64,000 nt of DNA from an uncultured Chloroflexia bacterium. GTDB lineage: Bacteria; Chloroflexota; Anaerolineae; Anaerolineales; UBA4823. Positions 1,862 to 51,604 of this stretch are shown here, piece after piece. Positions within the stretch are counted from its first letter, which is position 1. The number at the start of each line of letters is the position of its first letter. The notes under the pieces were generated by a model, which searched no databases, was not told where the DNA came from, and worked only from the letters and a program-made list of their open reading frames with translations. The stretch covers positions 697,550 through 761,549 of the forward strand of contig CAVORW010000004.1 of the NCBI GenBank assembly GCA_963698715.1, given 5' to 3'. Both the position numbers and the translations under genes were made by a program.

Positions 1862-1995
1862 CTTAGTGGTTCTCGCGCTAAATCCTTTGCATACAAAAGA
1901 AGGATGGGTAGTGTTCGGTTTGGACGGCTACACCGTCCAAACTGAACACTACAATCTCTTCTCTTCTTAAGTGACTTGCCGAGAATACCACTTAG
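1862..1995 (-). repeat. Bipartite intergenic cassette, copy A, with nested palindrome
   Basis: Minus strand reads CTAAGTGGTATTCTCGGCAAGTCACTTAAGAAGAGAAGAG, then the hairpin, then TTTTTGTATGCAAAGGATTTAGCGCGAGAACCACTAA. Homologous to 34302..34434, 25599..25674 and 46836..46873. Confidence 0.75.
1908..1952. repeat. REP-like palindrome: 20-bp stem with one G-T pair, 5-nt loop
   Basis: GTAGTGTTCGGTTTGGACGG CTACA CCGTCCAAACTGAACACTAC. On the minus strand it is followed by CCATCCTTCTTTTGT, so it is a plausible terminator for the upstream gene 2028..3266. Confidence 0.8.
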
Positions 1996-2027: not shown

Positions 2028-3266
2028 TTATACATCGTCCAGGCTGCGCTCCAGGTCAGCCAACAAATCCTGCAGATTCTCGATCCCAACCGACATTCTC
2101 ACCAGGCCATCACTGACGCCCATGCGCAGGCGTTCTTCTGGCGGCATGGCAGATTGGGTCATACTGGCGGGGTGCTGGATCAATGTATCGGCATTGCCCA
2201 GGCTGACCGCCAGAGTAGCAACCTGGACGCTTTCCATGAGCCTGACTCCGGCCTGAAAACCGCCTTTCAATTCGAAAGATAGCATGCCTCCAAAATCAAA
2301 CATCTGCCGCTGAGCCAGATCAAATTGGGGGCTATCTTCAAGGCCAGGGTAGTAAACTTTGGAAATCCTGGGATGGCGATTCAGGTAACGTGCAATTGCC
2401 AGGGCATTCTCACAATGGCGCTGCATCCGCAGCTCAAGTGTCCTAAGCCCCTGGGCTGCTAACCAGCAGTCAAACGGGCTGGGCGCTCCCCCAAGCAGAA
2501 CGATCATGCGCTGTACTTCCTGGCGGATATAATCGGGGTGCCGGCTGACAACCGCCCCGCCAATGATAGTCCCATGCCCTGACAGGAATTTTGTGGTTGA
2601 GTGGATCACGATATCCGCTCCCAGGGAAAGCGGTCGCTGGCAGTAAGGGCTGGCGAAGGTGTTATCAACCAGCAGCCAGGCTCCATACTGATGCGCCAGT
2701 TCAGCCAGGGAGACCAGGTCAACCAGTTGCAGAGTAGGATTAACCGGCGACTCTGCATAGACCAGTGTCGCCTCCGGATGCTCTTCCAGAGCGATCTGCC
2801 AGCCAGCTGGGGAAAGATCATCCACCCAGACCAGGTTAATACCCAGGGTTGGAGCAATATCGCCCAAAAAATTAAAAGCATGCCCATAAAGCGCCGATTG
2901 GGCCACAATCGTCGCCCCAGCCCGCGCCTTGCCCAGGACCGCGGCTGTAATGGCTGCCATACCAGAAGACAACACCCTTCCAACAACCACATCATCCGGC
3001 TCTATCAGTGGCTGAGCGCGCAGCAAGTCCAGTCCCTCCAAATACGCGATTTTTTGGGCTAACTGCCAGGCGTTTGGATTGGCTACCCGGGTGTAGTAGT
3101 AACCAGGCTCGCGGCCCTGGCTGATAGCGGCCCCGGTTGGCACATCTGGATAGATGAAAGAGGAGGTTTGGTAGATGGGACTGACATGAGCATGGGAAGG
3201 GTCAAATCCCTCGCCGACATGGTTGACAAGCGTGCTCATCCCAGATGATGAGGGGATTTTTTTCAT
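2028..3266 (-). CDS. Cys/Met-metabolism PLP-dependent enzyme (cystathionine gamma-synthase / methionine gamma-lyase / O-acylhomoserine sulfhydrylase family)
   Basis: Full-length match in style to the trans-sulfuration family, with the PLP-lysine motif STTKFLSGHG. Start chosen at the ATG (MKKIPSS) preceded by GAAGGAA. The exact subfamily cannot be assigned by eye. Confidence 0.85.
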   Translation of the reverse strand: MKKIPSSSGMSTLVNHVGEGFDPSHAHVSPIYQTSSFIYPDVPTGAAISQGREPGYYYTRVANPNAWQLAQKIAYLEGLDLLRAQPLIEPDDVVVGRVLSSGMAAITAAVLGKARAGATIVAQSALYGHAFNFLGDIAPTLGINLVWVDDLSPAGWQIALEEHPEATLVYAESPVNPTLQLVDLVSLAELAHQYGAWLLVDNTFASPYCQRPLSLGADIVIHSTTKFLSGHGTIIGGAVVSRHPDYIRQEVQRMIVLLGGAPSPFDCWLAAQGLRTLELRMQRHCENALAIARYLNRHPRISKVYYPGLEDSPQFDLAQRQMFDFGGMLSFELKGGFQAGVRLMESVQVATLAVSLGNADTLIQHPASMTQSAMPPEERLRMGVSDGLVRMSVGIENLQDLLADLERSLDDV

Positions 3267-3342
3267 GAATGTTGATTCCTTCAATCAGGTGTTGTTCTTG
3301 CAACTTCTGAACAAACACGGCAGGTGGGATCTTTCCAGCTCG

Positions 3343-9068: not shown

Positions 9069-10589
9069 TTATTCTTCAGCTTTGCGCAGATGCGGGAACA
9101 AAATCACTTCCCGGATATTGGCACTGTCGGTAAACAGCATCGTCAAGCGATCGATGCCCATTCCAAAGCCACCGTTAGGCGGCATGCCATAGCGCATGGC
9201 GCGCAAATAATCTTCATCCATAGGGTGACGCTCTTCATCCTCGCTGGTGTAGTCTCGGCCCATCTCAAGGAAACGAGCTTCCTGATCCACTGGATCATTA
9301 AGCTCAGTAAAAGCGTTGCACAGCTCCATACCGGCGATAAAGCCTTCAAACCTCTCTACAATGTGAGGGGTGCCCGGCTTGCTTTTTGCCAGCGGTGATA
9401 TATCGCGGGGATAATTGTAGATGAAAGTCGGCTGGAGCAAATTCGGTTCAAGGTAATCGCTGAGCAAAGATTCGATCAGTTTACCACGCGGCGCTTTGGG
9501 GTCAACCGGGATATCGCGAGCACGCATTACACTCGCCAGACTCTCTGTGGTTGGGTGCTGATCGATATCAATCCCGGTCATTTCCAGCAAACCTTCGTTC
9601 AGCTCAATCCGCTGCCAGGGTGGTTCAAAGCTGAGTGTTTTACCCTGATAGGTCAGGCTGCGAGTACCCAGTACCCGGTCTGCGGTATAGACCAGCATAT
9701 CCTCAGTGAACTTCATAACTTTTTCGTAATCGGCATAAGCCATGTAAAACTCTAGCTGGGTGAATTCGGGGTTGTGGGTTCGATCTACACCCTCGTTGCG
9801 GAAATCGCGCCCAATCTCATATACACGCTCAATCCCCCCCACCAGCAAGCGTTTCAAATACAGTTCAAAAGAGATGCGTAAATATAAGTCTTGTTTAAGC
9901 TGATTGTGATGGGTAATAAAAGGCTTGGCGGCTGCGCCTCCATAGATTGGCTGCAGGACTGGTGTTTCGACTTCCAGGAAATCATGCGAATCCAGAAACT
10001 CCCTCAGCGTCCGTACAATGGCCGCTCGAGTCTGGAAGATCGCGCGCACATCTTCATTGACCGCCAGGTCTGCATAGCGCTGCCGGTAACGGGTTTCAGG
10101 ATCTGCCAGGGTAGCATAACGCACCACTTCGCCATCTACAACTTGATCTTTAGCGGCGGGCAGCGGTGTGATCGCTTTACTCAAAATGTGATATTCACTG
10201 ACACGCAGCGTCACCTCGCCAGTGCGCGTCCGAAACATTTCGCCGCTGGCCTGAATGAAATCGCCCAGGTCGAAGGTTCGGTTAAACAGGTCGAGCTTTT
10301 CCTGACCCATATCATTGGCCCGTAAGAAGAGCTGTACCCGACCAAACCCATCCTCGATATGTGCAAAAGTGATCTTCCCCATCGGGCGCAAGGAACGCAG
10401 CCTTCCGACCAGGGTTACCATTACCGGGGGCGGGTCTTCTGTTTTCTCGCCGGCTTCAAAAGCCTCGATCGCCTGCCGGCTGGTATGGGTGCGTTCTGCC
10501 TGGGTAGGATAAGGGTCAATCCCCTGCGAGTGCAATTTTTCGACCTTTTCCAACCGGATCTGCTCTAGATTTGAATATTTTTCGACCAT
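9069..10589 (-). CDS. lysS: Lysyl-tRNA synthetase, class II
   Basis: 506 aa from [21 protein letters not shown]-fold plus class II core ([34 protein letters not shown]). Confidence 0.95.
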
Positions 10590-11132: not shown

Positions 11133-11413
11133 TTTATTTTCCTGACTAACTGATATTGGGGGCAGTTTGAAATTCAATCCATTTCAATGGAAACAAGTGT
11201 AAAACCCCACGAATTTATTTCAAACGATCACTCCACAAAATTGCCCAGCCTGTTCAAGACAGCGAAATGTGGGTCAGCGTTGGGGGCACTTACGCCTTTG
11301 CCTGAGCAACTCCATAAAACAAAACCACTCCAAGGGGAGCGATTTTAATCAAAGCACCCATATTTGAAAAGCGAACGGCGTTCTGAGGGGTAGCCCTCTG
11401 CCGCCGCGCGGAT

Positions 11414-13011: not shown

Positions 13012-14070
13012 ATGTCAGAACTCCAACCTTTCCTAAAAACCCTTATCTCAGCGCCTGGTCTCTCGGGCCATGAGGCCCCAATTCGCAAACTAATCGAAGC
13101 TGAATGGCAGCCATTATGCGACCAGATCAATGTCAGCCGCCTGGGCAGTTTGCAAGCATTAAGATTGGGTACAGAAGATGAACCCCGCAACAGCCTGCTT
13201 TTAGCTGCCCACATGGATGCGATTGGCATGATGGTCACAGGCATCACCGATGGTTTTCTTCGCGCGACCCAAATTGGTGGGATTGACCCGCGTGTCTTAC
13301 CAGGACAAATCGTTACCGTGCATGGACACCAAGACCTGCCTGGCATGATTGTTCAACCCCCACCCCACCAGATGCCTGCAGAATATGCAAACTCCCCAGT
13401 ACCGCTGAACCATTTATTGATTGATGTCGGATTGAACCCCCGCCAGGTAACGCGGCTGGTTCGAGTTGGGAATCTTGTCTCGTTCGCTCAACCGCCTCTG
13501 GATTTGAGCAGCGATATCCTGGTCGGCCATTCACTGGATAACCGCGCTTCTGTAGCGGCGGTCACTTTCTGCCTGGAATCGCTTCAAAAGCGTACGTTGG
13601 CCTGGGATGTATGGGCGGTAGCCACTACCCAAGAAGAAGAAACCCTTGGCGGAGCGGCAACTTCCGCATTTGGACTGCGACCGACACTGGCTGTAGCCAT
13701 CGATATGACCTTTGGCGCCAGCCCCGGTAGCCCTGGGCATAAAACTTTTCCGATTGGTAAAGGGATTACTCTAGGATGGGGTCCTAACATCCATCCGGCC
13801 CTGTTTAAGGTTTTCAAAGAGCTTGCCGAACGCCTCGAAATCCCATACAAGATGGAGGTCATGCCGCGCAATTCAGGGACAGATGCCATTGCAATGCAGG
13901 TCGCAGCTGAAGGCGTCCCAACGATGGTGATCAGTATTCCACTGCGCTACATGCACACCCCGGTTGAAATGGTCTCTTTGAAAGATATTCAGCGCGCAGG
14001 CCGTTTGCTGGCTGAATTTGCGGCCAACCTGGATGCTACTTTCATGGAAAAGCTCATCTGGGATGCCTGA
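13012..14070 (+). CDS. M42 family metallo-aminopeptidase (paralog 1)
   Basis: APGLSGHE...LLAAHMDAIGMMV...TTQEEETLGGA...; typical size for the family. Confidence 0.85.
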   Translation: MSELQPFLKTLISAPGLSGHEAPIRKLIEAEWQPLCDQINVSRLGSLQALRLGTEDEPRNSLLLAAHMDAIGMMVTGITDGFLRATQIGGIDPRVLPGQIVTVHGHQDLPGMIVQPPPHQMPAEYANSPVPLNHLLIDVGLNPRQVTRLVRVGNLVSFAQPPLDLSSDILVGHSLDNRASVAAVTFCLESLQKRTLAWDVWAVATTQEEETLGGAATSAFGLRPTLAVAIDMTFGASPGSPGHKTFPIGKGITLGWGPNIHPALFKVFKELAERLEIPYKMEVMPRNSGTDAIAMQVAAEGVPTMVISIPLRYMHTPVEMVSLKDIQRAGRLLAEFAANLDATFMEKLIWDA

Positions 14071-14133
14071 CAGCCGCTCATTTCTGACAGCTAAACAATT
14101 TACGCTCTCTTAATGGACCCTGGAGATAGCAGA

Positions 14134-15261
14134 ATGACAGAAAGTCACGAAAACTCGTTTTACCTCCCGCCAAAGATAGGCAGTGCTCAACTGAAGCTGC
14201 TTGAACGTCTATGTAACGCCTGCGCTGTATCTGGGGACGAATCCGAGGTTCGCACGATTGTGCTTGATCAAATCCGGGAGCATATCAAAAAAAATCCTGA
14301 ACTCAATACTGAAATTAAGATCACAACGGATCATCTTGGGAATGTTCTGATCAGCCGTCAGGGCCGTTCGCCAAACCGCATGCGTATCATGGTAGCAGCC
14401 CATATGGACGAAGTCGGTTTTATGCTGACCAATGATGAAGATGACGGTATCTTTCGCTTCGAAGTGGTTGGTGGGATAGACGAACGCCAGCTGGCAGGTA
14501 AACCGGTCGTGGTCGGAAAAGACCGTGTGCCGGGAGTAATCGGAGCGAAACCTATCCATCTGACCACTGCTGAGGAGCGCAAACACAACATAACAATCGA
14601 CAGTTTGCGAATTGATCTAGGCCCTGGCAATGGTGGCAAAGCCAAAATTGGCGACCGAGCAACCTTTGCCACCGCCTTCAGCAAAATGGGGCCCAGCATA
14701 CGAGCCAAGGCACTGGATGATCGCCTGGGGGTAGCCAGCCTGATCGAGCTGATAAAACATTCACCGCCCAATATCGATTTGCTGGCTGCCTTCACCGTCC
14801 AGGAAGAAATCGGCCTGCGCGGTGCAACAGTTGCAGCTTATGCACTGGATCCCCAGTTGGCCATCGTCCTGGATGCCACGCCGGCAAACGATCTGCCTGC
14901 CTGGGACCCCTCTGAAGATGGCGAAAACCAACACTACAACACCCGCCTGGATGGCGGTCCGGCGATCTATCTGGCAGACCGGATGGTCTTTTCAGACCCG
15001 CGCCTGATCCGGCATATCAGCGAGATAGCCGAACGACTGAAAATCCCCTATCAATTCAGGCAACCGGGCGGCGGCGGGACTGACGCAGGAACGATCCATA
15101 AACAAAGGTCTGGAATACCCAGTATTTCCATTTCCGTACCAGCCCGATACACCCATACTACCGCCAGCATTTCCCGATTATCTGACTGGCAAAATACGCT
15201 GGCGTTGGTGTATGCCGCCTTGGCTAATCTTACGCCAGATATTCTTCAGCCGCTGGAATAG
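14134..15261 (+). CDS. M42 family metallo-aminopeptidase (paralog 2)
   Basis: VAAHMDEVGFML, FTVQEEIGLRGA. The ATG at 14134 has GGAGA upstream; the ATG at 14113 has no RBS. Confidence 0.85.
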   Translation: MTESHENSFYLPPKIGSAQLKLLERLCNACAVSGDESEVRTIVLDQIREHIKKNPELNTEIKITTDHLGNVLISRQGRSPNRMRIMVAAHMDEVGFMLTNDEDDGIFRFEVVGGIDERQLAGKPVVVGKDRVPGVIGAKPIHLTTAEERKHNITIDSLRIDLGPGNGGKAKIGDRATFATAFSKMGPSIRAKALDDRLGVASLIELIKHSPPNIDLLAAFTVQEEIGLRGATVAAYALDPQLAIVLDATPANDLPAWDPSEDGENQHYNTRLDGGPAIYLADRMVFSDPRLIRHISEIAERLKIPYQFRQPGGGGTDAGTIHKQRSGIPSISISVPARYTHTTASISRLSDWQNTLALVYAALANLTPDILQPLE

Positions 15262-15332
15262 CTTGCCGGAGGAATGGTGAACACCAATCTCGATCTACTT
15301 CAAAGTAGCTACAAAGTTGTCAGGAGTATGGA

Positions 15333-16343
15333 ATGAAAAACCTAATCCAAAAGCTGGTTGAGACCGCAGGCCCCTCGGGATTTGAGACCAAGATTCGGAA
15401 AGTAATTCGGGAAGAAATCGAGCCATTCTGTGACGAAATTCGAGTTGATCAGCTTGGTAACCTGATAGCAGCTAAAGGCAGTCCTACCCCAGGATCAAAG
15501 AGGATTATGCTGGCGGCCCACATGGATGAGATTGGGCTCATGGCTACCCATATCGATGAAGCTGGTTATATCCGATTTTTACCCATCGGTGGAGTTTCAC
15601 CTTTAACTTGCCTGGGAGGCCGGGTCAAATTCCTGAATGGCGCAGCAGGCGTAATCGGTGCTGAGCGCCTTGATCCTGGTAAAACGCCCTCCATGAGCCA
15701 GCTCTTTATTGATATAGGCTGTTCTTCGCGAGAAAACTCCCAGGTAAGCGTTGGAGATGTGGCAGTTTTTGAACGTCCTTTCAGCAGCTTGGGACAGCGC
15801 CTGGTAGCCAAAGCCATGGATGATCGGATCAGTGTTGCAATTTTGATCGAAACACTGCGACAGATTTCCGAAACCAAAGGCGAACTGGCTCATCAAGTAT
15901 ATTTTGTCTTTTCCGTTCAGGAAGAAGTTGGTACCCGCGGAGCCACAACTGCTGCCTTTGGAATAGAGCCCGACCTGGGATTAGCCGTAGATGTGACCTC
16001 TACTGGTGACACACCCAAAGGGCTAAAAATGGAAGTCCGCCTGGGGCGTGGGCCAGCAATCAAAGTGCGCGACCAGGGAAATTTATCCGACCCAAGAGTG
16101 GTAGCTTGGATGGTAAAAACGGCCGAGAAAGCCCGAATACCCTATCAGATGGAAGTATTAGAGCGTGGCGGCACAGATGCCCGTGCTATCCAGCTCTCAC
16201 GGGCTGGCGTCCCAGCTGGCTGTCTCTCAATTCCATGCCGCTACATTCATACACCTTCCGAGATGGTGGATCTCCGAGATGTAGAAAATGCGGTTAAACT
16301 CTTGGTTGCGCTGCTCAGCCAACCAATCGAATTGGGTGAATAG
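15333..16343 (+). CDS. M42 family metallo-aminopeptidase (paralog 3)
   Basis: ETAGPSGFE, LAAHMDEIGLMA, FSVQEEVGTRGA. AGGAG RBS. Confidence 0.9.
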   Translation: MKNLIQKLVETAGPSGFETKIRKVIREEIEPFCDEIRVDQLGNLIAAKGSPTPGSKRIMLAAHMDEIGLMATHIDEAGYIRFLPIGGVSPLTCLGGRVKFLNGAAGVIGAERLDPGKTPSMSQLFIDIGCSSRENSQVSVGDVAVFERPFSSLGQRLVAKAMDDRISVAILIETLRQISETKGELAHQVYFVFSVQEEVGTRGATTAAFGIEPDLGLAVDVTSTGDTPKGLKMEVRLGRGPAIKVRDQGNLSDPRVVAWMVKTAEKARIPYQMEVLERGGTDARAIQLSRAGVPAGCLSIPCRYIHTPSEMVDLRDVENAVKLLVALLSQPIELGE

Positions 16344-23353: not shown

Positions 23354-24265
23354 TTACCCCTTCAAGCCGGTCGTGGCGATGCCCTCAGTAAATTGCTTTT
23401 GAGTCAAGAAGTAAATGATTAAAATCGGAATCACTGTAATGACAGCCCCTGCCATCAATAAGTTCGTTTCCGGGCCGGCTTCGCTTACGAATGTCCACAG
23501 TCCAACCATCAGCGGCCGCCAGGTTTCGCGGGTTGTCACCAGCAGTGGCCAGAGAAACGCATTCCAAGAACCAATAAAGGCAAAGATCAGCACGGTCAGG
23601 ATCGGTGCTTTGCTGATCGGGAGCACAATCTGGATCAAGAAGCGGAGATGGCCGGATCCATCTATCCGAGCCGCATCCCATAATTCGTCCGGGATCTTAA
23701 CAAAGAACTGCCGTAACAGGAAAATACTGAAGGCGTTTGCCATGAAAGGCACGGTTAGCGCCTGTAAAGAATTCAACCAGGAACCGCCCGGTAAAGGTAA
23801 AATATCGCCTCGGATCATCAAAAAATTGGGGATCATGGTGATTGATTCGGGGATCATCATCGTACTGAGCAACAGCGCAAATAGCAGGTCGCGCCCAAAA
23901 AATTTAATCCGGCCAAAAGCATATCCAGCCAGGATCGAAGTGGTCAGCAAACCAGCGATCGTCGTCCCGGTTACAACCACACTGTTTAAAAAGTAACGGG
24001 CAAATCTGGCCTCGGTCCAGGCTTCAATATAATTGGCAAATTGGGGAGATTTGGGCAGCCACTGGCGGTTAATGGTTTCGCCCAAACTCATCAGCGAAGT
24101 GGATACCATCCAGAAGAACGGAACTACAGCCAAGACAGCGCCCAGAATCAAAAGCAAATACATCAAAAGGCGCGCAGGGCGGAATATAACCGGAGCTGGG
24201 CTGGCCTTAGAAAGGGACGCACTTCGCTCTTGAATTTGATCTTCGATTTGGAAGGTATCAGCCAT
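23354..24265 (-). CDS. Carbohydrate ABC transporter permease (MalG-like)
   Basis: Six TM segments, EAA-type loop DAARIDGSGHLRFLIQIVLP. The ATG overlaps the upstream stop by 8 nt. Confidence 0.9.
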   Translation of the reverse strand: MADTFQIEDQIQERSASLSKASPAPVIFRPARLLMYLLLILGAVLAVVPFFWMVSTSLMSLGETINRQWLPKSPQFANYIEAWTEARFARYFLNSVVVTGTTIAGLLTTSILAGYAFGRIKFFGRDLLFALLLSTMMIPESITMIPNFLMIRGDILPLPGGSWLNSLQALTVPFMANAFSIFLLRQFFVKIPDELWDAARIDGSGHLRFLIQIVLPISKAPILTVLIFAFIGSWNAFLWPLLVTTRETWRPLMVGLWTFVSEAGPETNLLMAGAVITVIPILIIYFLTQKQFTEGIATTGLKG

Positions 24266-25436
24266 AGAACACCTTATCGCCAAAGATCTTATTCTGGGCA
24301 AAAGTCAGCGCAAGGATAATAAAGAACAGGATAATCGCCTGGGCTGCTGCATAACCATATTGATTGGCTTTATAAAATGTATCAAAAATCGTCACGCTGG
24401 CAACATCCACCGTGCCTTGAGCCGATGGCACCCGCATCACATAGATATGGTTGAAAGCTTTAAATGTGCCAATGAAGGCAATCAGGGCCAGGTAGAAGGT
24501 CACTGGTGAGAGCAAAGGGACCGTGATATAGCGGAATAACTGCCATTTCCCGGCGCCATCGATCTCGGCTGCTTCATACAGCTCCCCTGGGATCGAGCCC
24601 AATCCCGCCAGGAAAATCACCGTGTTGTATCCAACATACGTCCAGATCCCGAAGAAGATAACCGAGACCAGCGCCATACTCGGGCCCGCCAGAAATCCCT
24701 CGAGATCCTGGAGTTTTAAAATAATTTCGTTGATCGGACGCGGTTCGAACAACCACTTCTGGGGTTCAATATTCAACCAGGAAAGGACAATATTCGACAG
24801 GGAAGTCTCGCGTGGGCTAAAAATAGTTCGGAAGACCACCGCAGCTGCCACAACCGGCGTAATATAGGGTAAGAAGTACAGCATTCGGAAAAACTCCTGG
24901 CCTTTTATCTTCTGAAACAAGATATAAGCCAGGATTAAAGCAAAGAGCAATTCGGCCGGGACCGTACCCAGGGCATAGAAAAATGTGATGGGCAAAGAAT
25001 CTAGAAAACTCGTATCACCAGCCTCCATCATTCTTTGCCAGCCTACCGGTATAACCAGGCCCGATCCAATCAGTATCAAAGCTGCCAGCAGCCTGATTAC
25101 CAAGGATCGATCATCCTGAGAACGCAAAGCGCTGTTCCAGACAAGATAGGCTATAAATAAAAGTGCAAACCCGACCAAAAAAATCAGAACGCCCATCCAA
25201 TCCCCCAGGGCTTTATGATAATTTTCAATACCAATAAAGGAGCCTTTTCGAACCCGCCAGCTATAGGTGCTCATGTAAAAAGCGTAGCCAATCGGGAAAA
25301 AACCAAATATCGTGATGATAAGGAAGGCCGGCAGGATAAATAAGTACCCGGTAATGTGTTCTTTTATATCGATCCAGCGCCTCTGCCTGCGCTTTGGCTG
25401 TCCGAGACTTGATTGAGGCATTGATGTAGTTGTCAA
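24258..25436 (-). CDS. Carbohydrate ABC transporter permease (MalF-like)
   Basis: EAAEIDGAGKWQLFRYITVPLL loop. TTG start 6 nt after GGAGG. Confidence 0.85.
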   Translation of the reverse strand: MTTTSMPQSSLGQPKRRQRRWIDIKEHITGYLFILPAFLIITIFGFFPIGYAFYMSTYSWRVRKGSFIGIENYHKALGDWMGVLIFLVGFALLFIAYLVWNSALRSQDDRSLVIRLLAALILIGSGLVIPVGWQRMMEAGDTSFLDSLPITFFYALGTVPAELLFALILAYILFQKIKGQEFFRMLYFLPYITPVVAAAVVFRTIFSPRETSLSNIVLSWLNIEPQKWLFEPRPINEIILKLQDLEGFLAGPSMALVSVIFFGIWTYVGYNTVIFLAGLGSIPGELYEAAEIDGAGKWQLFRYITVPLLSPVTFYLALIAFIGTFKAFNHIYVMRVPSAQGTVDVASVTIFDTFYKANQYGYAAAQAIILFFIILALTFAQNKIFGDKVFYG

Positions 25437-25598
25437 TACATACCTCCCCGTCGTTCGCGGCCCAAAGCATCCAAAATCACAGTAAGCTTAATGCCTGATG
25501 ATCCAAGAGAATTGGTCCAATGAAAATGCTAGAGGTTATCCCAACTCATTATAAAACAAAAAACTCAAAGTGTGAAATATCAGGCCATAAAAAGTGCG

Positions 25599-25674
25599 CT
25601 AAATGGTCTTTTCGGCACGTCACTTAAGAAAAAAGAGCTTGTGTTTGCAAAGAACTTAGCGAAAGAACCACTAA
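25599..25674 (+). repeat. Bipartite intergenic cassette, copy C (no nested palindrome)
   Basis: CTAAATGGTCTTTTCGGCACGTCACTTAAGAAAAAAGAG | CTTGTGTTTGCAAAGAACTTAGCGAAAGAACCACTAA. About 95% identical to the two halves of copy B. Confidence 0.8.
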
Positions 25675-25792
25675 TGCGTGCACTTAAATGTTGTAGATGA
25701 TAAACTTGGGAAACGCTTACAGGTCTCAGCTCACAGCTCAGCCATAATCGCTGCGTACGAACCGACCTGACCGAAATATCGGGAGAAATAAG

Positions 25793-27247
25793 TTGCTGCT
25801 TTCTTTGCATAATAAAATTAACCACCGCCAATCGTTGTGCTTAGGACTGATCTGGCTGGTACTTATCCTGGCAGCTTGCCAGGCAAATGTGCCTGCTCCC
25901 GATAGCACATCTACAGCGCCAGCCGGAACCGTCATACCTACACCCGCTCAGAAAACTGTCACGACGCCAACCCACGCGCCAACCTCCGCACCCACCCCTG
26001 CCAGCACATTGGGGATCGACTCCCAGGAATTGGACGGCATCTCAGTTACTTTTTGGCATGTCTGGAACGAAATACCAGGCTCGGTACTTCAAGCCCTGGT
26101 TGCAGATTTCAACGCTCAGAATGAATGGGGCATCCGGGTCAACAGCCGCTATACGGGGACCTTTGATGAGCAATACGCCAGCGTCCTTGCAGCTCTCAAC
26201 ACGCCCGAACAGCCGGATATTGCTGTTGGTTATGTCTATCAGACGCTTGATTGGGATGCAAATGACCAGGTTGTCGATCTAAATCCATATGTGAATGATC
26301 CCATTTGGGGAATGGGGCCAGCCAGCGAGGATTTCTTGAGACCCTTCTGGGACTCCGATGTGGTGGCAGGAAAACGCCTGGGGATACCCGCCATGCGGAC
26401 TGGCCAGTATCTCTTTTACAATCAGACCTGGGCCAAGGAGCTGGGTTACGACACAGCGCCCAGCACGCCAACCCAGTTTCGGCAACAAGCCTGTGCAGCC
26501 GCCGATGCAAACCGGCAAGACGATGATCTGGACAATGATGGAACCGGTGGTTATATCTTGAGCATAGACTATAGCGTGATGCTGGCCTGGATTGGTGGGT
26601 TTGGCGGTGATGTTGTCGTCCCTTCAGACGGCGGCTACCAATTCGATACCCAATCCGTTCAAAACACTTTTCATTTTTTGAGAGATCTGTTCGATCGCGG
26701 CTGCGCTTGGCTGCCTGAAGACCAGCTGCCAGACACTGATTTTGCTTTTCGCCGTGGTCTGTTTGCTTCCGGCAGCCTGCTAGATGTTCCTGAACAATTT
26801 TACACTTTCAGCCAGACGCCCAACCGGGACCGCTGGACGCTGATTCCATACCCGTCTAATCAGGGTGCGCCGGTAGTAGACGTTTATGGACCGTCCTTCA
26901 GTGTATTGAAATCTTCTCCTGAGAGAGAATTGGCTGCCTGGTTGTTTATTCGCTGGCTGTCTGAGCCTGAAAATCAGATTCGTCTGACAGGCGCGACCTC
27001 CTCGCTGCCCCTGCGAGGCGATGCACAGCAATTGATGGAAACCAAGCCCCTCTCGCCCCAATGGCAGGCTGCAGTCGATGCAATTCAATACGCCCGAGCG
27101 GAGCCGGCAGTTCGCTCGTGGCTGAATGTGCGTTGGGCAGTAGCAGATGCAGCCACGCAGCTTTTCCGTTACTACTTCACCATCGATCAGGTACCCATGC
27201 TGATCGAGCTCCTCGACAATACTGCAAAGGAATTACACAATCGATGA
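25793..27247 (+). CDS. ABC-type extracellular solute-binding lipoprotein (family 1, sugar-type)
   Basis: TTG start after GGGAGA. Signal [14 protein letters not shown]. Body VTFWHVWNE...[13 protein letters not shown]. Confidence 0.8.
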
Positions 27248-32989: not shown

Positions 32990-34285
32990 TCAGGCGGGCG
33001 GCACCAGGATGACTTGATCCCTTTCTGGACCGACTGAGAGAATCGTCACCGGGACGCCGACCAGCTGTTCGATCTTCCTTACATAGTCTTGCGCCTGAGC
33101 AGGAAGCTGCTGAAAATACCGGATAGCAGTTGTCGACTGCATCCAGCCTGGCAGCTCCTGGTAAACCGGCTGGCAACTTTGCAGCCAATGGGCGTCCCCC
33201 TGCCAGTAATGGGCGAGATCCTGATCCGGGCCACGTTCGGGAGTGTGATATCCGACGCAAATTTTAACCGCAGGCAAACTATCTAAAACATCCAGCTTGG
33301 TTAATGCAAGTTCGGTGAAACCATTCAACTGGCTTGTGAAGCGGACCAGATCAGCATCGAACCAACCACAGCGCCGCGGCCGCCCTGTCACCGTGCCATA
33401 TTCATGGCCTTGCTCGAGCAAAGTTTTCCCGTCTTCGTCAAACAATTCGGTTGGGATCGGACCCATCCCAACCCGAGTCGTGTAGGCTTTGGCAATTCCA
33501 ATCACCCGCTGGCATAAAGCTGGTGCAATTCCCAGCCCGGCACTTACCCCGCCAGCCAGGGTAGTAGAGGCCGTGCAGTACGGGTAAGTGCCCCAAGTAT
33601 TATCTAGCAAGGCAGCCTGAGCACCCTCAAGAACGATTTCCTTATCCTGTGCGAGCGCTTCCTGCAACATCCCAAAGTGCTCGCGGACCATCGGCCGAAT
33701 TTTGGCATATTGGTCCATTTTTTCAGCAATAATGGCCTTTGCTTCGAGCGGCTCAATACCAAAAGCCTCAAGGATTGGATTTTTCACCGCCAGCTGAATT
33801 CTCAGCTTTTCGGTAAAGATTTTTTCATCCGCCAGATCAACTAAGCGTATACCGTTATAACTGACCTTATCAGCATACACCGGGCCCATTCCACGCCGGG
33901 TTGTGCCGGTGCGGGCGTCACCTTTTGCATTTTCGTAAATCCCCTCCAAAAGTGGGTGATATGGCATCACGAGATGGCAGCGTGGTGAAATCCAATATCG
34001 GGAGCGCAGATCGATACCCTGGCTTTCGATAAATTCAAGCTCGCTGATCAGCGTCTCCAAATTGAGCACAACCCCTGGGCCTATGATACAGACTGTATCT
34101 GGGCTGGAAAACCCATTGGGCGTTAATCGAACCTTGAAGGTTCCATATTTGTTGACCACAGTATGCCCAGCATTATCCCCACCATTGAAACGGGCCACGA
34201 TTTCGGCCTGACCGGAGAGCAGGTCTGTTATTTTTCCTTTCGCTTCATCCCCCCATTGTGCACCAACGATTACAGTAACAGCCAT
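32990..34285 (-). CDS. purA: Adenylosuccinate synthetase
   Basis: MAVTVIVGAQWGDEAKGKITDLL...; ATG at 34285 after GGAGG. The track extension to 34393 reads through the repeat cassette. Confidence 0.95.
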   Translation of the reverse strand: MAVTVIVGAQWGDEAKGKITDLLSGQAEIVARFNGGDNAGHTVVNKYGTFKVRLTPNGFSSPDTVCIIGPGVVLNLETLISELEFIESQGIDLRSRYWISPRCHLVMPYHPLLEGIYENAKGDARTGTTRRGMGPVYADKVSYNGIRLVDLADEKIFTEKLRIQLAVKNPILEAFGIEPLEAKAIIAEKMDQYAKIRPMVREHFGMLQEALAQDKEIVLEGAQAALLDNTWGTYPYCTASTTLAGGVSAGLGIAPALCQRVIGIAKAYTTRVGMGPIPTELFDEDGKTLLEQGHEYGTVTGRPRRCGWFDADLVRFTSQLNGFTELALTKLDVLDSLPAVKICVGYHTPERGPDQDLAHYWQGDAHWLQSCQPVYQELPGWMQSTTAIRYFQQLPAQAQDYVRKIEQLVGVPVTILSVGPERDQVILVPPA

Positions 34286-34301
34286 AATGCGACCTCCATT
34301 T

Positions 34302-34434
34302 TTAGTGGTTCTTTCGCTAAATTCTTTGCAAACATAAGAAGGATATGTGGTGTTCGGTTTGGGCGGCTGCACCGCCCAAACCGAACACCACATTTCTCTT
34401 TTTTCTTATGTGACTTGCCGAAAAGACCATTTAG
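34302..34434 (-). repeat. Bipartite intergenic cassette, copy B, with nested palindrome
   Basis: Minus strand CTAAATGGTCTTTTCGGCAAGTCACATAAGAAAAAAGAG, then the hairpin, then CTTATGTTTGCAAAGAATTTAGCGAAAGAACCACTAA. It ends 16 nt before the purA ATG. Confidence 0.8.
34345..34393. repeat. REP-like palindrome: perfect 22-bp stem, 5-nt loop
   Basis: ATGTGGTGTTCGGTTTGGGCGG CTGCA CCGCCCAAACCGAACACCACAT. Confidence 0.85.
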
Positions 34435-34561
34435 TCCCTCATTATTTTCCATGCGGAATGGTTTTCTTGGTAAGGGTGCTTTGGGAATCTCTGGAGTGGG
34501 GAATTTGGCAACCAAACAACTAAGTCCCCAGCCTGTCTCTGGCCAGGGCAATGCCTGGTCC

Positions 34562-35518
34562 TTAAGAACGCTGGATCGGCCTGGTCGGCGGTTCTCGGCG
34601 GTAGCGCGGATCGCGCTCTATCGTCAGGCGCAGCCCCTCCTCAAGTGAAAAACGAGGCTGGTAACCCAGTTTATCACGAGCCAGGCTGAGATCTGCGCAC
34701 ATCCGTGACACGCCTGGTGAAGTACGTGGATTGTTAATCACTTCTATTTTTGCTCCAGTCACAGCCGTGACCATCCTGACAAGACCCCGGATGCTGGTCT
34801 CTTGCCCGCTGCCGATATTAATGACCATCTGGTTAATTCCAGGCGCCGTAGCAGCGGCTATCAAGGCAGTGACCACGTCATCCACATATACATAATCGCG
34901 GGTTTGATTACCATCTCCGTGCATAACCAGGGTCCCCCCGCGCATCGCCTGGCGTAAAAAATTTGGAATTACCGGTGGATGCGAGGGTGGCAAATGCTGT
35001 CCGGGGCCATAGGCATTAAACACGCGCAGGCTTACGCTCTCAATCCCCCACAGATCACCGATGGTGCGCACATAATATTCAGCTGCCAGCTTAGAGACGG
35101 CATAAGGAGAACGCGGGTTAGGAAAGGCTGTTTCTTTGAGAGGCTGAGTTCCCTGATCCCCATACACTGCCCCCGACGAGACAAATACAACTCGGTGAAC
35201 GCCGACATCGCGCATGGCTTCCATCAGGCTAACTGTTCCGCCGACATTGGTAGCGTTATACTCGCGCGGGTAAAGCACTGATTCGGGCACAGCCACTCGC
35301 GCCGCCAGATGATAGACGCAATCCACTTCTTGCAGCAAAGTCCACAACTTGGGACGATCATTGACATCGCCCCGAGTAAAGAGGATATCCGGAGAAAGCG
35401 ATTGCGGATTGCCTGCCGAGAGATCATCCAGTCCCCGGACCTGATGGCCTTCTCGAACCAGATAATTTGCCAGATTCGAACCGATAAATCCGGCCGCACC
35501 AGTGATTAAAAAATTCAT
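34562..35518 (-). CDS. NAD-dependent epimerase/dehydratase (UDP-sugar 4-epimerase-like SDR)
   Basis: ITGAAGFIGSNL Rossmann motif, YAVSK catalytic motif. Confidence 0.85.
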   Translation of the reverse strand: MNFLITGAAGFIGSNLANYLVREGHQVRGLDDLSAGNPQSLSPDILFTRGDVNDRPKLWTLLQEVDCVYHLAARVAVPESVLYPREYNATNVGGTVSLMEAMRDVGVHRVVFVSSGAVYGDQGTQPLKETAFPNPRSPYAVSKLAAEYYVRTIGDLWGIESVSLRVFNAYGPGQHLPPSHPPVIPNFLRQAMRGGTLVMHGDGNQTRDYVYVDDVVTALIAAATAPGINQMVINIGSGQETSIRGLVRMVTAVTGAKIEVINNPRTSPGVSRMCADLSLARDKLGYQPRFSLEEGLRLTIERDPRYRREPPTRPIQRS

Positions 35519-37101: not shown

Positions 37102-37380
37102 TAATCTATCCAGAAGTATTGAGTATTCCTGGGGTGGTATCCTCATCACAGGATTTCCCAGAGACCCTAATTTAAGGTTCTCCGGAATCTCTGCGGGAGA
37201 GTCCCAGCAATTGCCAATGACCCTAATTCAAGGCTAACAAACCTGGCAAGATTCGCTGGTAAAATGAAACACATTTGTATCCAATTTGACAACGATATTA
37301 CGGTAGGCAATCCCACTCTCGTGAATAACGCGATATTGTCAGGCTGGTTAGCCCTAAAATTAATGGAGAGATGATCCATA

Positions 37381-41347: not shown

Positions 41348-41402
41348 ACAATATTTCTCCGTCTTATAAATAATTTAAAAGCTACACAGTTCCAGGGAAA
41401 TT

Positions 41403-41447
41403 TGGTGAGTTTGGGCGGGCGCTGCCCGCCCAAACTCACCAAATCCT
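41403..41447. repeat. REP-like palindrome: perfect 21-bp stem, 3-nt loop, inside the csp 5'UTR
   Basis: ATTTGGTGAGTTTGGGCGGGC GCT GCCCGCCCAAACTCACCAAAT. Confidence 0.85.
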
Positions 41448-41498
41448 ACTCTAACTGCGGATGTCCCCGAGGTACTGAGGTGCTTAACTAAAAATCAA

Positions 41499-41527: not shown

Positions 41528-41764
41528 TGATCGAAAAACGCCCTGCGAGCGCACGATGCACCTGTTTGGGATTTTTTTATATGAAATTTATGCTGGCAGC
41601 CGAAAAAATTATGATTTCATTGAAGCGTGGGGGGCAAATCAGAATCATGTTTCATTCGGCAGCCGACGTCCGAATGAAACCTTCCTGCCCGGACTGAGAG
41701 TCCCGAGTAGTCCAATCATAAATTCTGTGTATTTGGATTAGTGGTACTCGCTCTAGAATTAAAT

Positions 41765-41811
41765 GGTTGTGTCGGATATTCGGCGATTTTCCCCAAATAT
41801 CCGACACAACC
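41765..41811 (-). terminator. Long hairpin downstream of etfA (possible terminator)
   Basis: GGTTGTGTCGGATATT, 15-nt loop, AATATCCGACACAACC. The minus strand is followed by ATTTAATT. Confidence 0.45.
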
Positions 41812-41824
41812 AAGCCTTCTAAAC

Positions 41825-44969: not shown

Positions 44970-45213
44970 ATCTGTTCCTCCCATCCAGCGGTGATGTTTT
45001 TGCAATCCTGCCTCCCAATTATAGCCGGGCTTTTTGGAGGATAAATTGGGTTCTTTGAGAGTCATTGGGAAATACTGTTCTGAGGGTACCACTCCAGAGA
45101 TTCCCGGAGAACCTTCTTTGAGTGTCTCTATGGTTGGGAGGAACTGTGGTGGTTTTCAGTTTTTTCACAACCAGATTATAGAGAACTGAACTGCCTCGGA
45201 TATAATCATCGGC

Positions 45214-46668
45214 ATGAACTACTCGCCCGGTAAACATCTACCAGGCTTGATCCTGGTTTTGGTACTGATCTCCATACTAGGACTATCGGCGCTTCCTCAC
45301 GATGCAAGCCGCGAGCTCGAACAGGCTCAACGCGCTCTGGATGCAGGCGCACACCTTGCTGCCTCCGAGCACTTGGCTCGGGCTGCTGAAAAGCTGCCTG
45401 AACGATCGGATCTATGGAGTCTTGCAGGCCAATATGCCCTGCAGGGTGGCCAACCAGATCGCGCGATCGCGTATCTGCTCCGCATTCCACCAGCCAGTCA
45501 AACGGCAGAAGATCTATTGAGCCTGGGAGATGCATACGCCCAGACAACCGACACAGAGCCAGCGATCGCCAGCTGGCGGGCTTCTCTCCAGGTCGGTGGA
45601 CCGGCGGTGCCGCTCCATCAGCGCCTGACAGAGGCCCACTTGACCCTGAAGGAATATCCGGCTGCAATATCTAATTTACACAACCTGATCAGCCTTCTCC
45701 CTGGGGATGCAGCCATCCATTACCGACTGGGATTGATCACGGCTACACAGGATCCCGAAAGCGCGCTCGCCCACCTGGCCAGGGCAGTGGAACTTGACGA
45801 AACCTTTGGCAGCCGTGCTCGAATCCTACAGCGAGGCATCACCTCAGCCAGGTTGGCCGAATCACGCGCTTACAGTTTGATGGCCGCCGGACGCGCCCTG
45901 GCTTCTTTGGATGAATGGAAATTTGCAGAGGAGGCGTTTCGCCAGGCCACCCTGGATAGCCCAAATTATGCAGAAGCCTGGGCGTACTTAGGAGAGGCTC
46001 GCCAGCATTCCGTAGATGGGTTGGGGTCTGCAGGCAACGAAGTTCTGCCGCCCGAAACCGGGCTGCTGGAATTAAAAAGGGCTATCGAACTCGATCCAAC
46101 TTCTATTGCAGCTTATCTATTCATGGGGATGTATTGGCGTCGCCAGGACAGGTACGATCAGGCCCTTGCCAGCCTGCAGACGGCCGTCGAAATCGAACCT
46201 GAGAATCCTATCTTACAGGTGGAGCTTGGAGAGGTTCTGGCTACTCTAGGCGATTTGAATGCCGCACTGAACGCCTACCGGAAAGCCAGTCAGCTTGCCC
46301 CAAATGATCCATCCTATCTTAACTTTCTGGTGGCATTCTCATTAAAGTATGAATACTATATCGAAGAAATTGCTCTGCCTGCAGCTCGTCAGGCAGTCAT
46401 ATTAGCTCCCGACGATCCAGAAGCGCTCGATAGCATGGGGCAGGTATTGATCAAGCTGGATGATCAGATCAACGCCGAACGATTTATCACCAGGGCACTG
46501 GAAAATGATCCCTTTTTCGCTCCAGCCCATTTGCATTTGGGTCAGGTTTACCTGCTCCAAGGTAGAATGGCCCTGGCCCACGAGCAATTAAACCAAGTCA
46601 AAGAACTGGCCCCGGATAGTCCGACAGCCGAACAAGCCCAACGATTGATCAATAAATACTTTCCATAA
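45214..46668 (+). CDS. TPR-repeat protein with N-terminal TM anchor
   Basis: Multiple 34-aa TPR units (AEAWAYLGEA, AAYLFMGMYW, APAHLHLGQVYLLQG). Confidence 0.8.
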   Translation: MNYSPGKHLPGLILVLVLISILGLSALPHDASRELEQAQRALDAGAHLAASEHLARAAEKLPERSDLWSLAGQYALQGGQPDRAIAYLLRIPPASQTAEDLLSLGDAYAQTTDTEPAIASWRASLQVGGPAVPLHQRLTEAHLTLKEYPAAISNLHNLISLLPGDAAIHYRLGLITATQDPESALAHLARAVELDETFGSRARILQRGITSARLAESRAYSLMAAGRALASLDEWKFAEEAFRQATLDSPNYAEAWAYLGEARQHSVDGLGSAGNEVLPPETGLLELKRAIELDPTSIAAYLFMGMYWRRQDRYDQALASLQTAVEIEPENPILQVELGEVLATLGDLNAALNAYRKASQLAPNDPSYLNFLVAFSLKYEYYIEEIALPAARQAVILAPDDPEALDSMGQVLIKLDDQINAERFITRALENDPFFAPAHLHLGQVYLLQGRMALAHEQLNQVKELAPDSPTAEQAQRLINKYFP

Positions 46669-46835: not shown

Positions 46836-46873
46836 CTTAGTGGTGTTTTCAGCAAGCCACTTAAGAAAATGAG
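46836..46873 (+). repeat. Bipartite intergenic cassette, copy D (5' half only; 3' half degenerate)
   Basis: CTTAGTGGTGTTTTCAGCAAGCCACTTAAGAAAATGAG aligns along the 5' half of copies A-C. Confidence 0.55.
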
Positions 46874-47053
46874 ATATTTTGGTGTGTGAAGTTTGTCCTT
46901 TTCCACTCCTGGCGTTATATTTCAGATCAACTATCGCCATATCAGGGGGTGAAACTGTGCAAAATACGGAAAAGGTCTAACTCAAAATAATCCATCCCCT
47001 TTTCAAAGGACAGCAAATTGGAAATAAAACCACATACATATACTGGAGTAATT

Positions 47054-47710
47054 ATGAAATCCGATCACAGATTTTTTATCATATTAGCAATCCTAATCCT
47101 GGCGTCCTTGGCTTGTCAGACAGCAACTGGAGGAGGTGAAACTCCCCCTGAACAGCCCAGCAATTTACTGTTTCAAGATGATTTTTCTGATACATCTAGC
47201 GGTTGGGATCGGGTGACGACAGACACCGGCGTAACAGATTACGTTGATGGCTTGTACCGCATTTACGTGAATGAAGCCGGAACAGATATCTGGGCTAACC
47301 CAGGCCTGGAATTTACGGATGTGAGCGTGCAGGTTGAGGCGATCAAAGTTGGCGGGCCAGACGACAATGACTTTGGTGTCATTTGCCGCTCGGTGGACAT
47401 CTCAAATTTTTACTTCTTCGTAATCAGCAGTGATGGCTATTATGGGATCGGCAAAGTCTCCGATGCGGGTCAAGAACTGATCGGCACGGATGCCATGCAA
47501 CCCAGTGAAGCCATCCAGCAAGGGGAAACCACGAACACAATCCGGGCCGAGTGTGTTGGCAGTTCGCTAAGCCTGTATGTTAATGGCGAAATGCTTGCTG
47601 AAGTTCAAGACTCGGAATTCAGCAGCGGCGATGTTGGCCTGATTGCAGGATCCTTCGATATCCAAGGTACAGACATCCATTTCGATAATTTTAGCGTGAC
47701 CCAACCATAG
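47054..47710 (+). CDS. Secreted lipoprotein with a ConA/LamG-like jelly-roll domain (hypothetical)
   Basis: MKSDHRFFIILAILILASLACQT lipobox after GGAG. The beta-rich body ends ...IHFDNFSVTQP. Confidence 0.65.
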   Translation: MKSDHRFFIILAILILASLACQTATGGGETPPEQPSNLLFQDDFSDTSSGWDRVTTDTGVTDYVDGLYRIYVNEAGTDIWANPGLEFTDVSVQVEAIKVGGPDDNDFGVICRSVDISNFYFFVISSDGYYGIGKVSDAGQELIGTDAMQPSEAIQQGETTNTIRAECVGSSLSLYVNGEMLAEVQDSEFSSGDVGLIAGSFDIQGTDIHFDNFSVTQP

Positions 47711-49592: not shown

Positions 49593-50378
49593 ATGATTAC
49601 TTCTATCCGCAATCCAAAAATCCAGTTGGTTCGCAAGCTCCAGTCTCAAAGCCGCGCTCGCCGGGAAGAACAATTGTTGATTACCGAGGGTGTGCGGTTA
49701 TGCGAGGAGGCACTGGCGGCTGGTTGGCCTGCGAAGCTTGTTTTATATACTGCTGACCTGAGCGAACGCGGTCAGTCCCTCCTGGATAGTTTGGCCGATC
49801 AGGGTGCGGATCTGGAACAGGTCTCCGAGCAAGTCATGCGCTCGGCCAGCGATACTCAGTCTCCCCAGGGTATTCTGGCAGTCTTGCCGCAGCGCAGTTT
49901 ACCTATCCCAGAGCCCCTGAATTTTGTATTCATTCCGGACGAGGTTCGTGACCCGGGTAATCTGGGCGCCATGCTGCGCACGGCTGAAGCAGCCGGTGTC
50001 GGGACAGTGCTTCTACCTCCCGGCACGGTTGATGTCTATGCGCCCAAGGTTGTCCGGGCTGCAATGGGGGCTCATTTTCGCCTGCCGATCTTTTTGCTCA
50101 GCTGGGATGAAATCTACAGCAAACTACGATCTGTGAACCTGAGAGTGGTGGTAGCCGTGGCAGGTTCTGGGACAACCTATACCCAGGCCGATCTACACAG
50201 CCCTCTGGCGCTGATAATAGGTGGTGAGGCCGAGGGAGCTGGAGAAAAGGCCCGCTTGCTGGCAGACGAACTGGTGCATATACCGATGCCCGGTAAGGCT
50301 GAATCATTAAATGCTGCCATTGCTTCGGCAATCCTGTTGTTTGAAATCGTTCGGCAGAGGGGCTTATACCTCCGGTGA
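49593..50378 (+). CDS. TrmH/SpoU family RNA 2'-O-methyltransferase
   Basis: DEVRDPGNLGAMLRTAEAAG, LIIGGEAEG, ESLNAAIASAILLFE. Confidence 0.85.
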   Translation: MITSIRNPKIQLVRKLQSQSRARREEQLLITEGVRLCEEALAAGWPAKLVLYTADLSERGQSLLDSLADQGADLEQVSEQVMRSASDTQSPQGILAVLPQRSLPIPEPLNFVFIPDEVRDPGNLGAMLRTAEAAGVGTVLLPPGTVDVYAPKVVRAAMGAHFRLPIFLLSWDEIYSKLRSVNLRVVVAVAGSGTTYTQADLHSPLALIIGGEAEGAGEKARLLADELVHIPMPGKAESLNAAIASAILLFEIVRQRGLYLR

Positions 50379-51604
50379 AAATACGATCGATCACCTATTT
50401 CCTTAATCCAAACAGCCCGACACCAGACATCGCGTTGAAGCAGGCTGGTGAATTCCTGATGACGGCCCGGCCCGCCTTTGAGGCGGCGGGGTATGAAGTT
50501 CAAACTGCCAGATTGGCGACTGTTCCTTTCCCCAGACTGCTGCCCCGCCTTCATGTTAATGCTTTGCTTGATCTGGCCCAAAATCTGGAATATGCAGGTA
50601 GGGCAGCCGGTTACGACTACATTTCCCTTGGACCAGCTTTACCCGACCAAATCGAAAGTTACGCCCTGATTCCACCGGTATTAGCTAAAACGAGTTAGGT
50701 TTTTATGGCGGGAATGTTAACCACTTCCGGCGGTGGGATCAGCCTGCCGGCCGTACGGGCCTGCGCTCACGTTATCCAGCACGCGGCTACCATCACGCCG
50801 GATGGATTTGGAAACCTTTTCTTCGCGGCCCTGGGCAACGTTCCGCCAGGCGCGCCATTCTTCCCGGCTGCCTACCATGGCGGGGATGCACCCTCATTTG
50901 GGCTGGCCTGCGAGGCGGCCGATCTGGCAGTCGAAGCCTTCAGCAAAGCGAATTCGCTGGAGCAGGCTCGCCAGGGATTTATCGAGCAGATTGAGAACCA
51001 CGCCAGCCTCCTGGCCCAGGTAGCTCAAAAAATCAGTGAAATTCACAAGCTGGCTTTTGGGGGAATTGATTTAACGCCGGCGCCTTTCCCGAAAAAAGAA
51101 CTCTCACTGGGAACAGCCCTGGAGAGGCTTGGTCTGGCGGCGGTTGGTCTGCATGGTGGCGTGGCTGCAGCAGCCTTTCTGGCCGACGCCCTCGACCGCG
51201 CCCATCTGCCTCGGGCCGGTTTCAATGGGCTGATGCTGCCAGTACTGGAAGATGCTGCCCTGGCAGAGCGCGCTACTGAAGGCACTCTGACGATTCGGGA
51301 TTTGTTGCTTTATTCAACGGTTTGCGGCACCGGTTTGGATACTGTGCCTTTGCCGGGAGATACTTCGCCAGACCAGCTGGCAGCTGTCCTGCTGGACCTG
51401 GCTGCCATCTCTCAGCGACTTGGAAAACCGCTGACGGCCCGCCTGATGCCCATCCCTGGCAAAAAGGTTGGTGATCCCACCGAGTTCGAATTCGGTTACT
51501 TTGCCAACAGCCGGATACTGGCTTTGGAGGCCGCCCCGCTGAGCGGTCTTCTGGCGGGAGATGAGACTTTCTATTTACAGCCGCGAGGCGGCTCAGGAAG
51601 TTGA
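50375..51604 (+). pseudogene. DUF711 / UPF0210 family gene interrupted by one in-frame TAG (50696..50698)
   Basis: GTG start overlaps the TrmH stop (GTGA). MKIRSITYFLNP... ends at TAG. Track ORFs 50375..50698 and 50705..51604 are in the same frame, and together give 409 codons. Confidence 0.75.

Follow-up and report, generated by a model that had tools for sequence, protein, structure and literature searches.

The 64,000-nt stretch of DNA analysed here (the window) contains four dispersed intergenic copies of a short two-part repeat; the earlier note had claimed such a repeat at four sites, and both its coordinates and its sequences were borne out. Most likely, this repeat is ordinary small selfish DNA and not a dedicated regulatory cassette of purA. 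We consider the family to be a lineage-specific set of non-coding, non-autonomous interspersed repeats, MITE-like in character and of the BOX/Correia kind (probability approximately 0.7); of the two readings that the earlier note offered, the MITE-type alternative is the better one. Both forms of the element, of 76 and 133 nt, are smaller than 300 bp, non-coding and AT-rich, and the family agrees with classic MITEs in part, namely in size, composition, dispersal and polymorphism. The GC content of the halves that make up the 76-nt core is 34-38%, compared with 53% for the window, and the sole open reading frame in the element is a spurious in-frame upstream extension of purA.

The long form of 133 nt occurs twice. 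Copy A (34302..34434, minus strand) lies between an epimerase gene (34562-35518, -) and purA (32990-34285, -) and consists of a 5′ half (34434..34396), a hairpin module (34395..34339) and a 3′ half (34338..34302). Copy B (1863..1995, minus strand; 5′ half 1995..1957, hairpin module 1956..1900, 3′ half 1899..1863) has a Cys/Met PLP-enzyme gene (2028-3284, -) on one side and a Big_5/A2M-like gene (start at about 1785, -) on the other; this copy had been placed correctly, except that it ends at 1863 and not at 1862. The short form is copy C (25599..25674, plus strand, 76 nt), in which the hairpin module is absent and the halves abut; its neighbours, an ABC permease gene (24258-25436, -) and a solute-binding-protein gene (25793-27247, +), diverge from the spacer that contains it. 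Copy D (46836..46874, plus strand) comprises the 5′ half only and is flanked by a TPR gene (45214-46668, +) and a 3keto-disac_hyd (PF06439)-like gene (47018-47710, +); an extension to about 46895 that resembles the left hairpin arm is weak and scores like shuffled sequences. The gene context of all copies was assigned with Pfam. Although 88% of the window is coding, every one of the four copies is intergenic (chance probability 2e-4); their flanks are unrelated, and two of them lie on each strand.

A 26-mer of the 5′ half, searched with up to three mismatches, was found at 34403-34428(-), 1964-1989(-), 25605-25630(+) and 46842-46867(+) and nowhere else in the window, with 0 matches expected by chance (100 shuffles). 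At the same tolerance the 3′ half was found in the window at 25642-25674(+) and 34302-34334(-), and nhmmer retrieved all three 3′ halves. No additional copy of either half was detected by nhmmer in the whole 64-kb window, and the check for further copies that the earlier note had proposed for the genome and its relatives, applied here to the window and to the contigs of relatives, returned only the four known ones. Copies A and C are the closest pair: the identities of 37/39 (5′ half) and 35/37 (3′ half) given previously were recomputed with the same result, corresponding to approximately 95%. Copy B shares 34/40 and 32/37 positions with copy A (82% across 134 nt, and 84-86% against A and C), and copy D is more distant from the other copies (31/40, about 78%).

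The closest proteins are those of uncultured Anaerolineales-like bacteria, and the relatives compared comprise eight contigs of 73.6 kb in total, several of them syntenic with the window. The similarity of their marker proteins to those of the window is 86%, 92% and 91% identity for purA (L005, L006 and L007, respectively), 85%, 87% and 83% for the PLP enzyme (L022, L023, and both L024 and L025) and 80% for the solute-binding protein (L026 and L027). In these 73.6 kb, nhmmer found no instance of either half, where 4.6 would be expected at the density of the window. Nor do the orthologous spacers contain the element, be it upstream of purA (site A; L005 and L006), downstream of the PLP gene (site B; L022, L023 and L024) or upstream of the solute-binding-protein gene (site C; L005, L026 and L027). 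The family is thus dispersed and differs in presence between genomes, with four copies per 64 kb in the window and none in the relatives; a clean, base-exact empty site was also sought in the relatives, and none was found in spacers that have diverged too far. In exact-pattern scans of GTDB genomes, JGI metagenomes and IMG/VR with the conserved cores, every match was confined to the pattern, most matches lay in coding sequence and none combined both halves; a 22-mer core produced nothing but chance matches in coding regions (GTDB and JGI). Neither the plasmid nor the phage collection contained a blastn match to the 133-nt element, and searching the literature for the terminus words yielded nothing of relevance. 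A Logan short-read contig from the same organism, with a 100% identical PLP enzyme, stops 60 nt past the stop codon, approximately 28 nt inside copy B, as is expected where an assembler meets a repeat.

In each of four genomes, the middle of the site-C spacer is occupied by a different hairpin or repeat element, which makes the site look like an insertion hot spot. The same spacer (window 25436-25793; L005, L026 and L027) is conserved at its edges only, in TTCACA-17-TATAAT and GATGATAAACTTGG. At site B, L022 carries a different element, in which 21-nt outer inverted repeats surround a perfect 24-bp palindrome and the terminus has GTGGTTCTTT in common with the window family.

The window element terminates in short inverted repeats that match imperfectly, reading T[T/A]A[G/A]TGGTnYTYTCG at one end and CGnnAGAACCACTAA at the opposite end. 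Inverted repeats had been described before as spanning about 20 nt with roughly 14/20 matches; inverted ends are indeed present, but they are short, with an 11-nt core (TGGTCTTTTCG versus TGGTTCTTTCG) matched at 9/11 positions in A and C, and copy B matches at 15/19 with gaps. A 9/11 match in a single copy is not significant, being equalled by 253/2000 shuffles; the termini are, at the same time, kept in every complete copy, with one parallel change at both ends. The form of the terminus word that an IS partner would share is TTAGTGGTTCTTTCG. Outside TGGT...ACCA the flanks read CTAAA/CTAAA in A, CTAAG/CTAAG in B and CTAAA/CTAAT in C. Because both ends always carry CTAA, a target-site duplication is indistinguishable from element sequence: the repeated letters may represent a duplicated TA, CTAA or 5-nt preferred target, or else belong to the element itself. 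At site C, a GTGCRCTWAAAT block stands on both sides of the element, which may reflect an approximately 11-nt duplication, although such a duplication does not agree with copies A and B.

The long form additionally contains a 57-nt module, a GC-rich hairpin of 20-22 bp that is bordered by A-rich sequence on its left and by T-rich sequence on its right, and the word typical of this hairpin family is TGGTGTTCGGTTTGGGCGG. The palindrome had been called perfect in both long copies, which is true of A, but B contains one A.C mismatch (pair 53-79). A search by nhmmer with the A/B module revealed five stand-alone members, four in relatives (L026 9181-9224, E = 4e-8; L027 3368-3411, E = 8e-5; L022 at about 1613-1664, E = 1e-3; L005 7308-7348, E = 0.014) and one in the window (41387-41457, E = 0.07 in this search and 0.03 in another), the last with 34-nt arms that are 82% complementary and a TTTGGGCGG core. 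The L026 palindrome, TGGTGTTCTGTTTGGGCGGCGA/TCGCCGCCCAAACAGAACACCA, is 19/20 identical per arm to the arm of copy A. Across six members, 98% of the cells of the stem are paired and 10/19 pairs have changed on both sides; 0/500 shuffles match any of these covariation measures, and slid registers fall to 33-45% paired. Homology of the stand-alone copies extends slightly past the stem, into the A-rich sequence on the left and the T-rich sequence on the right, which are the inner ends of the two halves in A and B. Judging by these sequences, the inner hairpin is a separable, older, clade-wide family maintained by compensatory change. The previously suggested modular cassette therefore stands insofar as the inner palindrome is separable and occurs alone in relatives, whereas the terminator and promoter roles assigned to it are not supported. 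The hairpin in the window at 41387-41457 lies upstream of a cold-shock gene (start at about 41349, -) and shares the long ETF-alpha/cold-shock spacer with a second palindrome at 41764-41812, just downstream of the ETF-alpha gene, whose 23-nt arms (91%) start with TGGTTGTGTCGG and are of the TGGT...TCGG word type seen in element termini and hairpin arms. A terminus-like word, TTAGTGGTACTCGC, is located at window 41740-41753.

We propose that a transposase acting in trans, which would recognise the termini or, less likely, the hairpin, carried the whole unit, or a copy of it, to new intergenic sites. Among approximately 38 ORFs of the window, a Pfam-type scan found no transposase domain, and no autonomous partner was found. 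The long form probably spread as one piece: copies A and B align without gaps along 133 nt, with the hairpin module at the identical junction, and such a shared architecture at unlinked loci suggests that the composite moved as one unit. The short form would then be an internal-deletion derivative that has lost the long palindrome, and the half copy a truncation. We favour a deletion because the palindrome is common to A and the more distant B although the copy closest to A is C (95%), and because long perfect palindromes are prone to deletion. The earlier view that the palindrome was inserted between the halves is correct about the junction, which is the same in A and B, but the direction is probably the reverse. 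Effects on neighbouring genes, such as incomplete termination, processing or stabilisation of transcripts at the hairpin, or a 5′ UTR with structure ahead of the purA ribosome-binding site, would be a by-product or a later co-option and not the reason why the sequence is repeated.

A distance of 16 nt separates the end of copy A from the purA ATG (34285); this distance had been given correctly, but the element does not stand immediately before GGAGG, from which AAAT (4 nt) separates it. The hairpin (approximately -40 kcal/mol) is located 53 nt upstream of the purA start codon and 37 nt before GGAGG and could affect purA expression, although a mild secondary role before purA, as attenuator, 3′-end stabiliser or structured leader, is unlikely. 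A dedicated link to purA is not supported: the genes downstream of the copies (purA, Big_5/A2M-like, solute-binding protein and 3keto-disac_hyd (PF06439)-like, according to Pfam) are unrelated, and relatives lack the element before the same genes. Upstream of purA, its frame continues without a stop through the element as far as an ATG at 34393 (32990-34393, -; 467 aa), whereas the conserved start with GGAGG at 34285 yields the 431 aa seen in relatives; automatic annotation might choose the wrong start.

The copies were also said always to face the next gene. All three informative copies (A, B and D) point the same way as their genes, which has a one-sided chance of 0.125 and does not establish the rule; copy C is uninformative, because in a divergent spacer either orientation faces a gene. 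If the co-orientation held genome-wide, it would need explaining. Co-orientation has been reported for the pneumococcal BOX, RUP and SPRITE repeats, and the orientation of BOX mirrors the coding bias of the genome (PMC3049150). A further pattern, that the palindrome accompanies a same-strand upstream gene, applies to A and B (2/3), but copy D lies downstream of a same-strand gene and has no intact palindrome.

Several other explanations account for part of these observations. It is very improbable that the repeat is a structured cis-regulatory RNA or a small RNA, in which the halves would close a helix and the leader would regulate the downstream gene. The long form is very stable, copy A folding at -64.5 kcal/mol with z = -11.3 in sense, but the fold is equally good on the opposite strand (z = -10.4) because it reflects a DNA palindrome, and the 76-nt form is no stabler than its shuffles (z = +1.07 sense, -0.05 antisense; DNA parameters agree). 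The compensatory U-A to C-G change noted earlier in connection with a closing RNA helix is present in the outer helix of the three complete copies, as is the one disruptive change, but the short form folds like shuffled sequences, and the covariation over the whole structure in these three sequences was equalled by 40/500 shuffles, so that the helix is not supported. While copy A does lie next to the purA ribosome-binding site, the downstream genes have no function in common and are preceded by no such element in the relatives. Rfam gave no match at the gathering score in the whole window and, at E <=10, assigned to copy A only generic miRNA-precursor hairpins (25-30 bits against thresholds of 62-90), which is generic-hairpin noise, and nothing to copy C; the statement that the element is not a recognised RNA family is thus borne out. 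The same is true of the reported lack of a sigma70 promoter within the element, since a sigma-70 scan found no promoter-like site inside any copy, 3′ halves included. The sole strong promoter-like site, TTCACA-17-TATAAT at 25576..25548 (-), is located outside copy C and faces the permease gene. Sigma-54 and ECF-type promoters in the halves were rejected by eye, as spacing and words do not fit.

A portable terminator or insulator of mobile origin, co-opted and kept because its hairpin ends or attenuates the upstream transcript or stabilises its 3′ end, is unlikely; its outer halves would supply a defined leader for the downstream gene. There is precedent for such co-option in the pneumococcal SPRITE repeats (PMC3049150), and A and B lie between tandem genes, but C and D have no intact hairpin. 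The hairpin has T-rich flanks and copy A passes a simple terminator scan on both strands; copy B, in contrast, passes only on the plus strand, antisense to its flanking genes. The U-rich tail noted after the palindrome therefore exists, but the better T run is antisense to the neighbouring genes, the sense-strand tail being poor, and B fails the scan in the sense of its genes. The co-orientation of the three informative copies and the other, non-homologous hairpins that relatives carry in the same spacers would suit an insulating function, although the relatives' hairpins fail the terminator scan and the 3′ half has no promoter in the scan. The hairpins of L026 and L027 sit in a divergent spacer in which no gene ends and nothing terminates, so that the family is not simply a terminator, contrary to the role first proposed for the hairpin. 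Equally on the functional side, we find it quite unlikely that mobile cassettes supply and replace the clade's intergenic hairpins, a TIR-bounded vehicle carrying hairpin cargo that is kept only in a tolerable orientation. This would amount to terminator turnover by transposition, with the 3′ half as a portable purA leader, and the co-orientation with genes would follow from keeping only those copies whose orientation makes termination or insulation tolerable.

Rather doubtful, too, is a selfish repeat mobilised via a single-stranded hairpin, in a REP/REPIN/RAYT-like or IS200/IS605-like HUH manner, and not by a DDE transposase acting at the termini. Every copy would then have been inserted as the long form, and C and D would have decayed. 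The weakness of the inverted termini and the fact that the hairpin is the sole part conserved across the clade, and strongly covarying, favour such a route, and we also count for it the CTAA at the left flank and the right end, where we see a likeness to the logic of IS200/IS605 cleavage sites. A strand bias like that of IS200/IS605 was rejected, as there are two copies per strand (2 + and 2 -) under a GC skew that is uniformly negative in the window. The hairpin arms begin with GT[G/A]G, and copy B reads GTAG, as does the GTAG tag of REPs; REP arms start with a GT[A/G]G word, and GTAG repeats have been reported in Chloroflexi (PMC3733652). However, the word is paired inside the stem on both arms and is not a one-sided tag, and the module is a single perfect 20-22-bp palindrome and not a 20-40-nt imperfect REP or an inverted doublet. 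The window contains no REP doublet, no HUH transposase, and no RAYT or TnpA gene.

Among known small repeats, the Correia elements differ in their termini, which are longer and well matched (inverted repeats of approximately 26 bp), whereas the window element has an 11-nt core at 9/11. The Correia elements of Neisseria (CREE/NEMIS) are likewise small non-coding intergenic repeats with inverted ends, whose length classes differ by an internal segment (PMC2649163). They form a hairpin when transcribed, often lie just 5′ of genes and show insertion differences between related genomes (PMC2649163). For Correia elements, length classes, a TA target and regulatory side-effects have been described, including altered expression of adjoining genes (PMC2649163). 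Unlike for the window element, promoters, an IHF site and RNase III cleavage are documented for them as well as the TA target; there is no sequence similarity between the two, and the phylum differs (here Chloroflexota-like).

The build of the window element resembles that of pneumococcal BOX (boxA-boxB(n)-boxC), which is also intergenic and in which the terminal modules either abut (A1C1) or enclose a self-folding internal module (A1B1C1) (PMC3049150). Similarly, the halves of the window element abut in C and enclose a self-folding module at a fixed junction in A and B; the likeness is one of build, and a relationship in sequence is not to be expected. Unlike boxB, the inner module is present 0 or 1 times, with no tandem array or multiplicity in the window copies, is a GC-rich perfect palindrome, and also exists alone. 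SPRITE repeats share with the window hairpin a dispersed distribution, a long stem (18 bp in SPRITE, 20-22 bp here) and a pyrimidine- or U-rich tract, and both are enriched close to the ends of genes and may have been recruited as terminators (PMC3049150). The window hairpin family differs in that it also occurs in divergent spacers, has a weak sense-strand tail and, in this genome, travels inside a larger unit. REP, BIME and REPIN sequences (RAYT) are also clade-wide intergenic palindromes with compensatory changes that form mosaics with other motifs (PMC3733652), but the window palindrome is perfect, longer and symmetric, without a one-sided GTAG, and the halves are not palindromic units. 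Neither these sequences nor SPRITE are related to the window element in sequence. The element opens no new class of mechanism. Small interspersed repeats are poorly catalogued in uncultured Chloroflexota, to which this adds one family, and it provides an example of a composite repeat in which the inner hairpin is shared across the clade and the outer part is lineage-specific. The element disrupts short-read assemblies.

Further repeats were observed in the window and its relatives. Another short motif, CCACTCCAGAGATTCCC[RR]AG[M]ACC, is dispersed as well: two copies of it are 22/25 identical (0 expected by chance), and the places concerned are window 34475-34499(-), 45089-45113(+) and 37151-37167(+) and L022 11253-11396. 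It resembles the termini, GGGAATCCCAAAGACCC, of the L022 element with outer inverted repeats and an inner palindrome (11288-11396), which is bordered by a 14-nt direct repeat, CCNGGTTATGTGGT. A similar word, GAATTCCCACAAAGCC, stands directly upstream of copy B, and contig L023 terminates in GGAATTTCTGTGG. A third hairpin family, AGGTGTGCGTGGG...CCCACGCACACCT, is found upstream of purA in L005 (at about 9917-9955) and in the site-C spacer of L026 (9094-9147), two sites that are non-orthologous. Among the other genes of the window, a DUF711 protein is split into two neighbouring ORFs, 50375-50698 and 50705-51604, which cover profile positions 8-130 and 141-406, and this split may reflect a frameshift, a sequencing error or a pseudogene. 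In addition, three M42 glutamyl-aminopeptidase paralogues are encoded in tandem at window 13012-16343.
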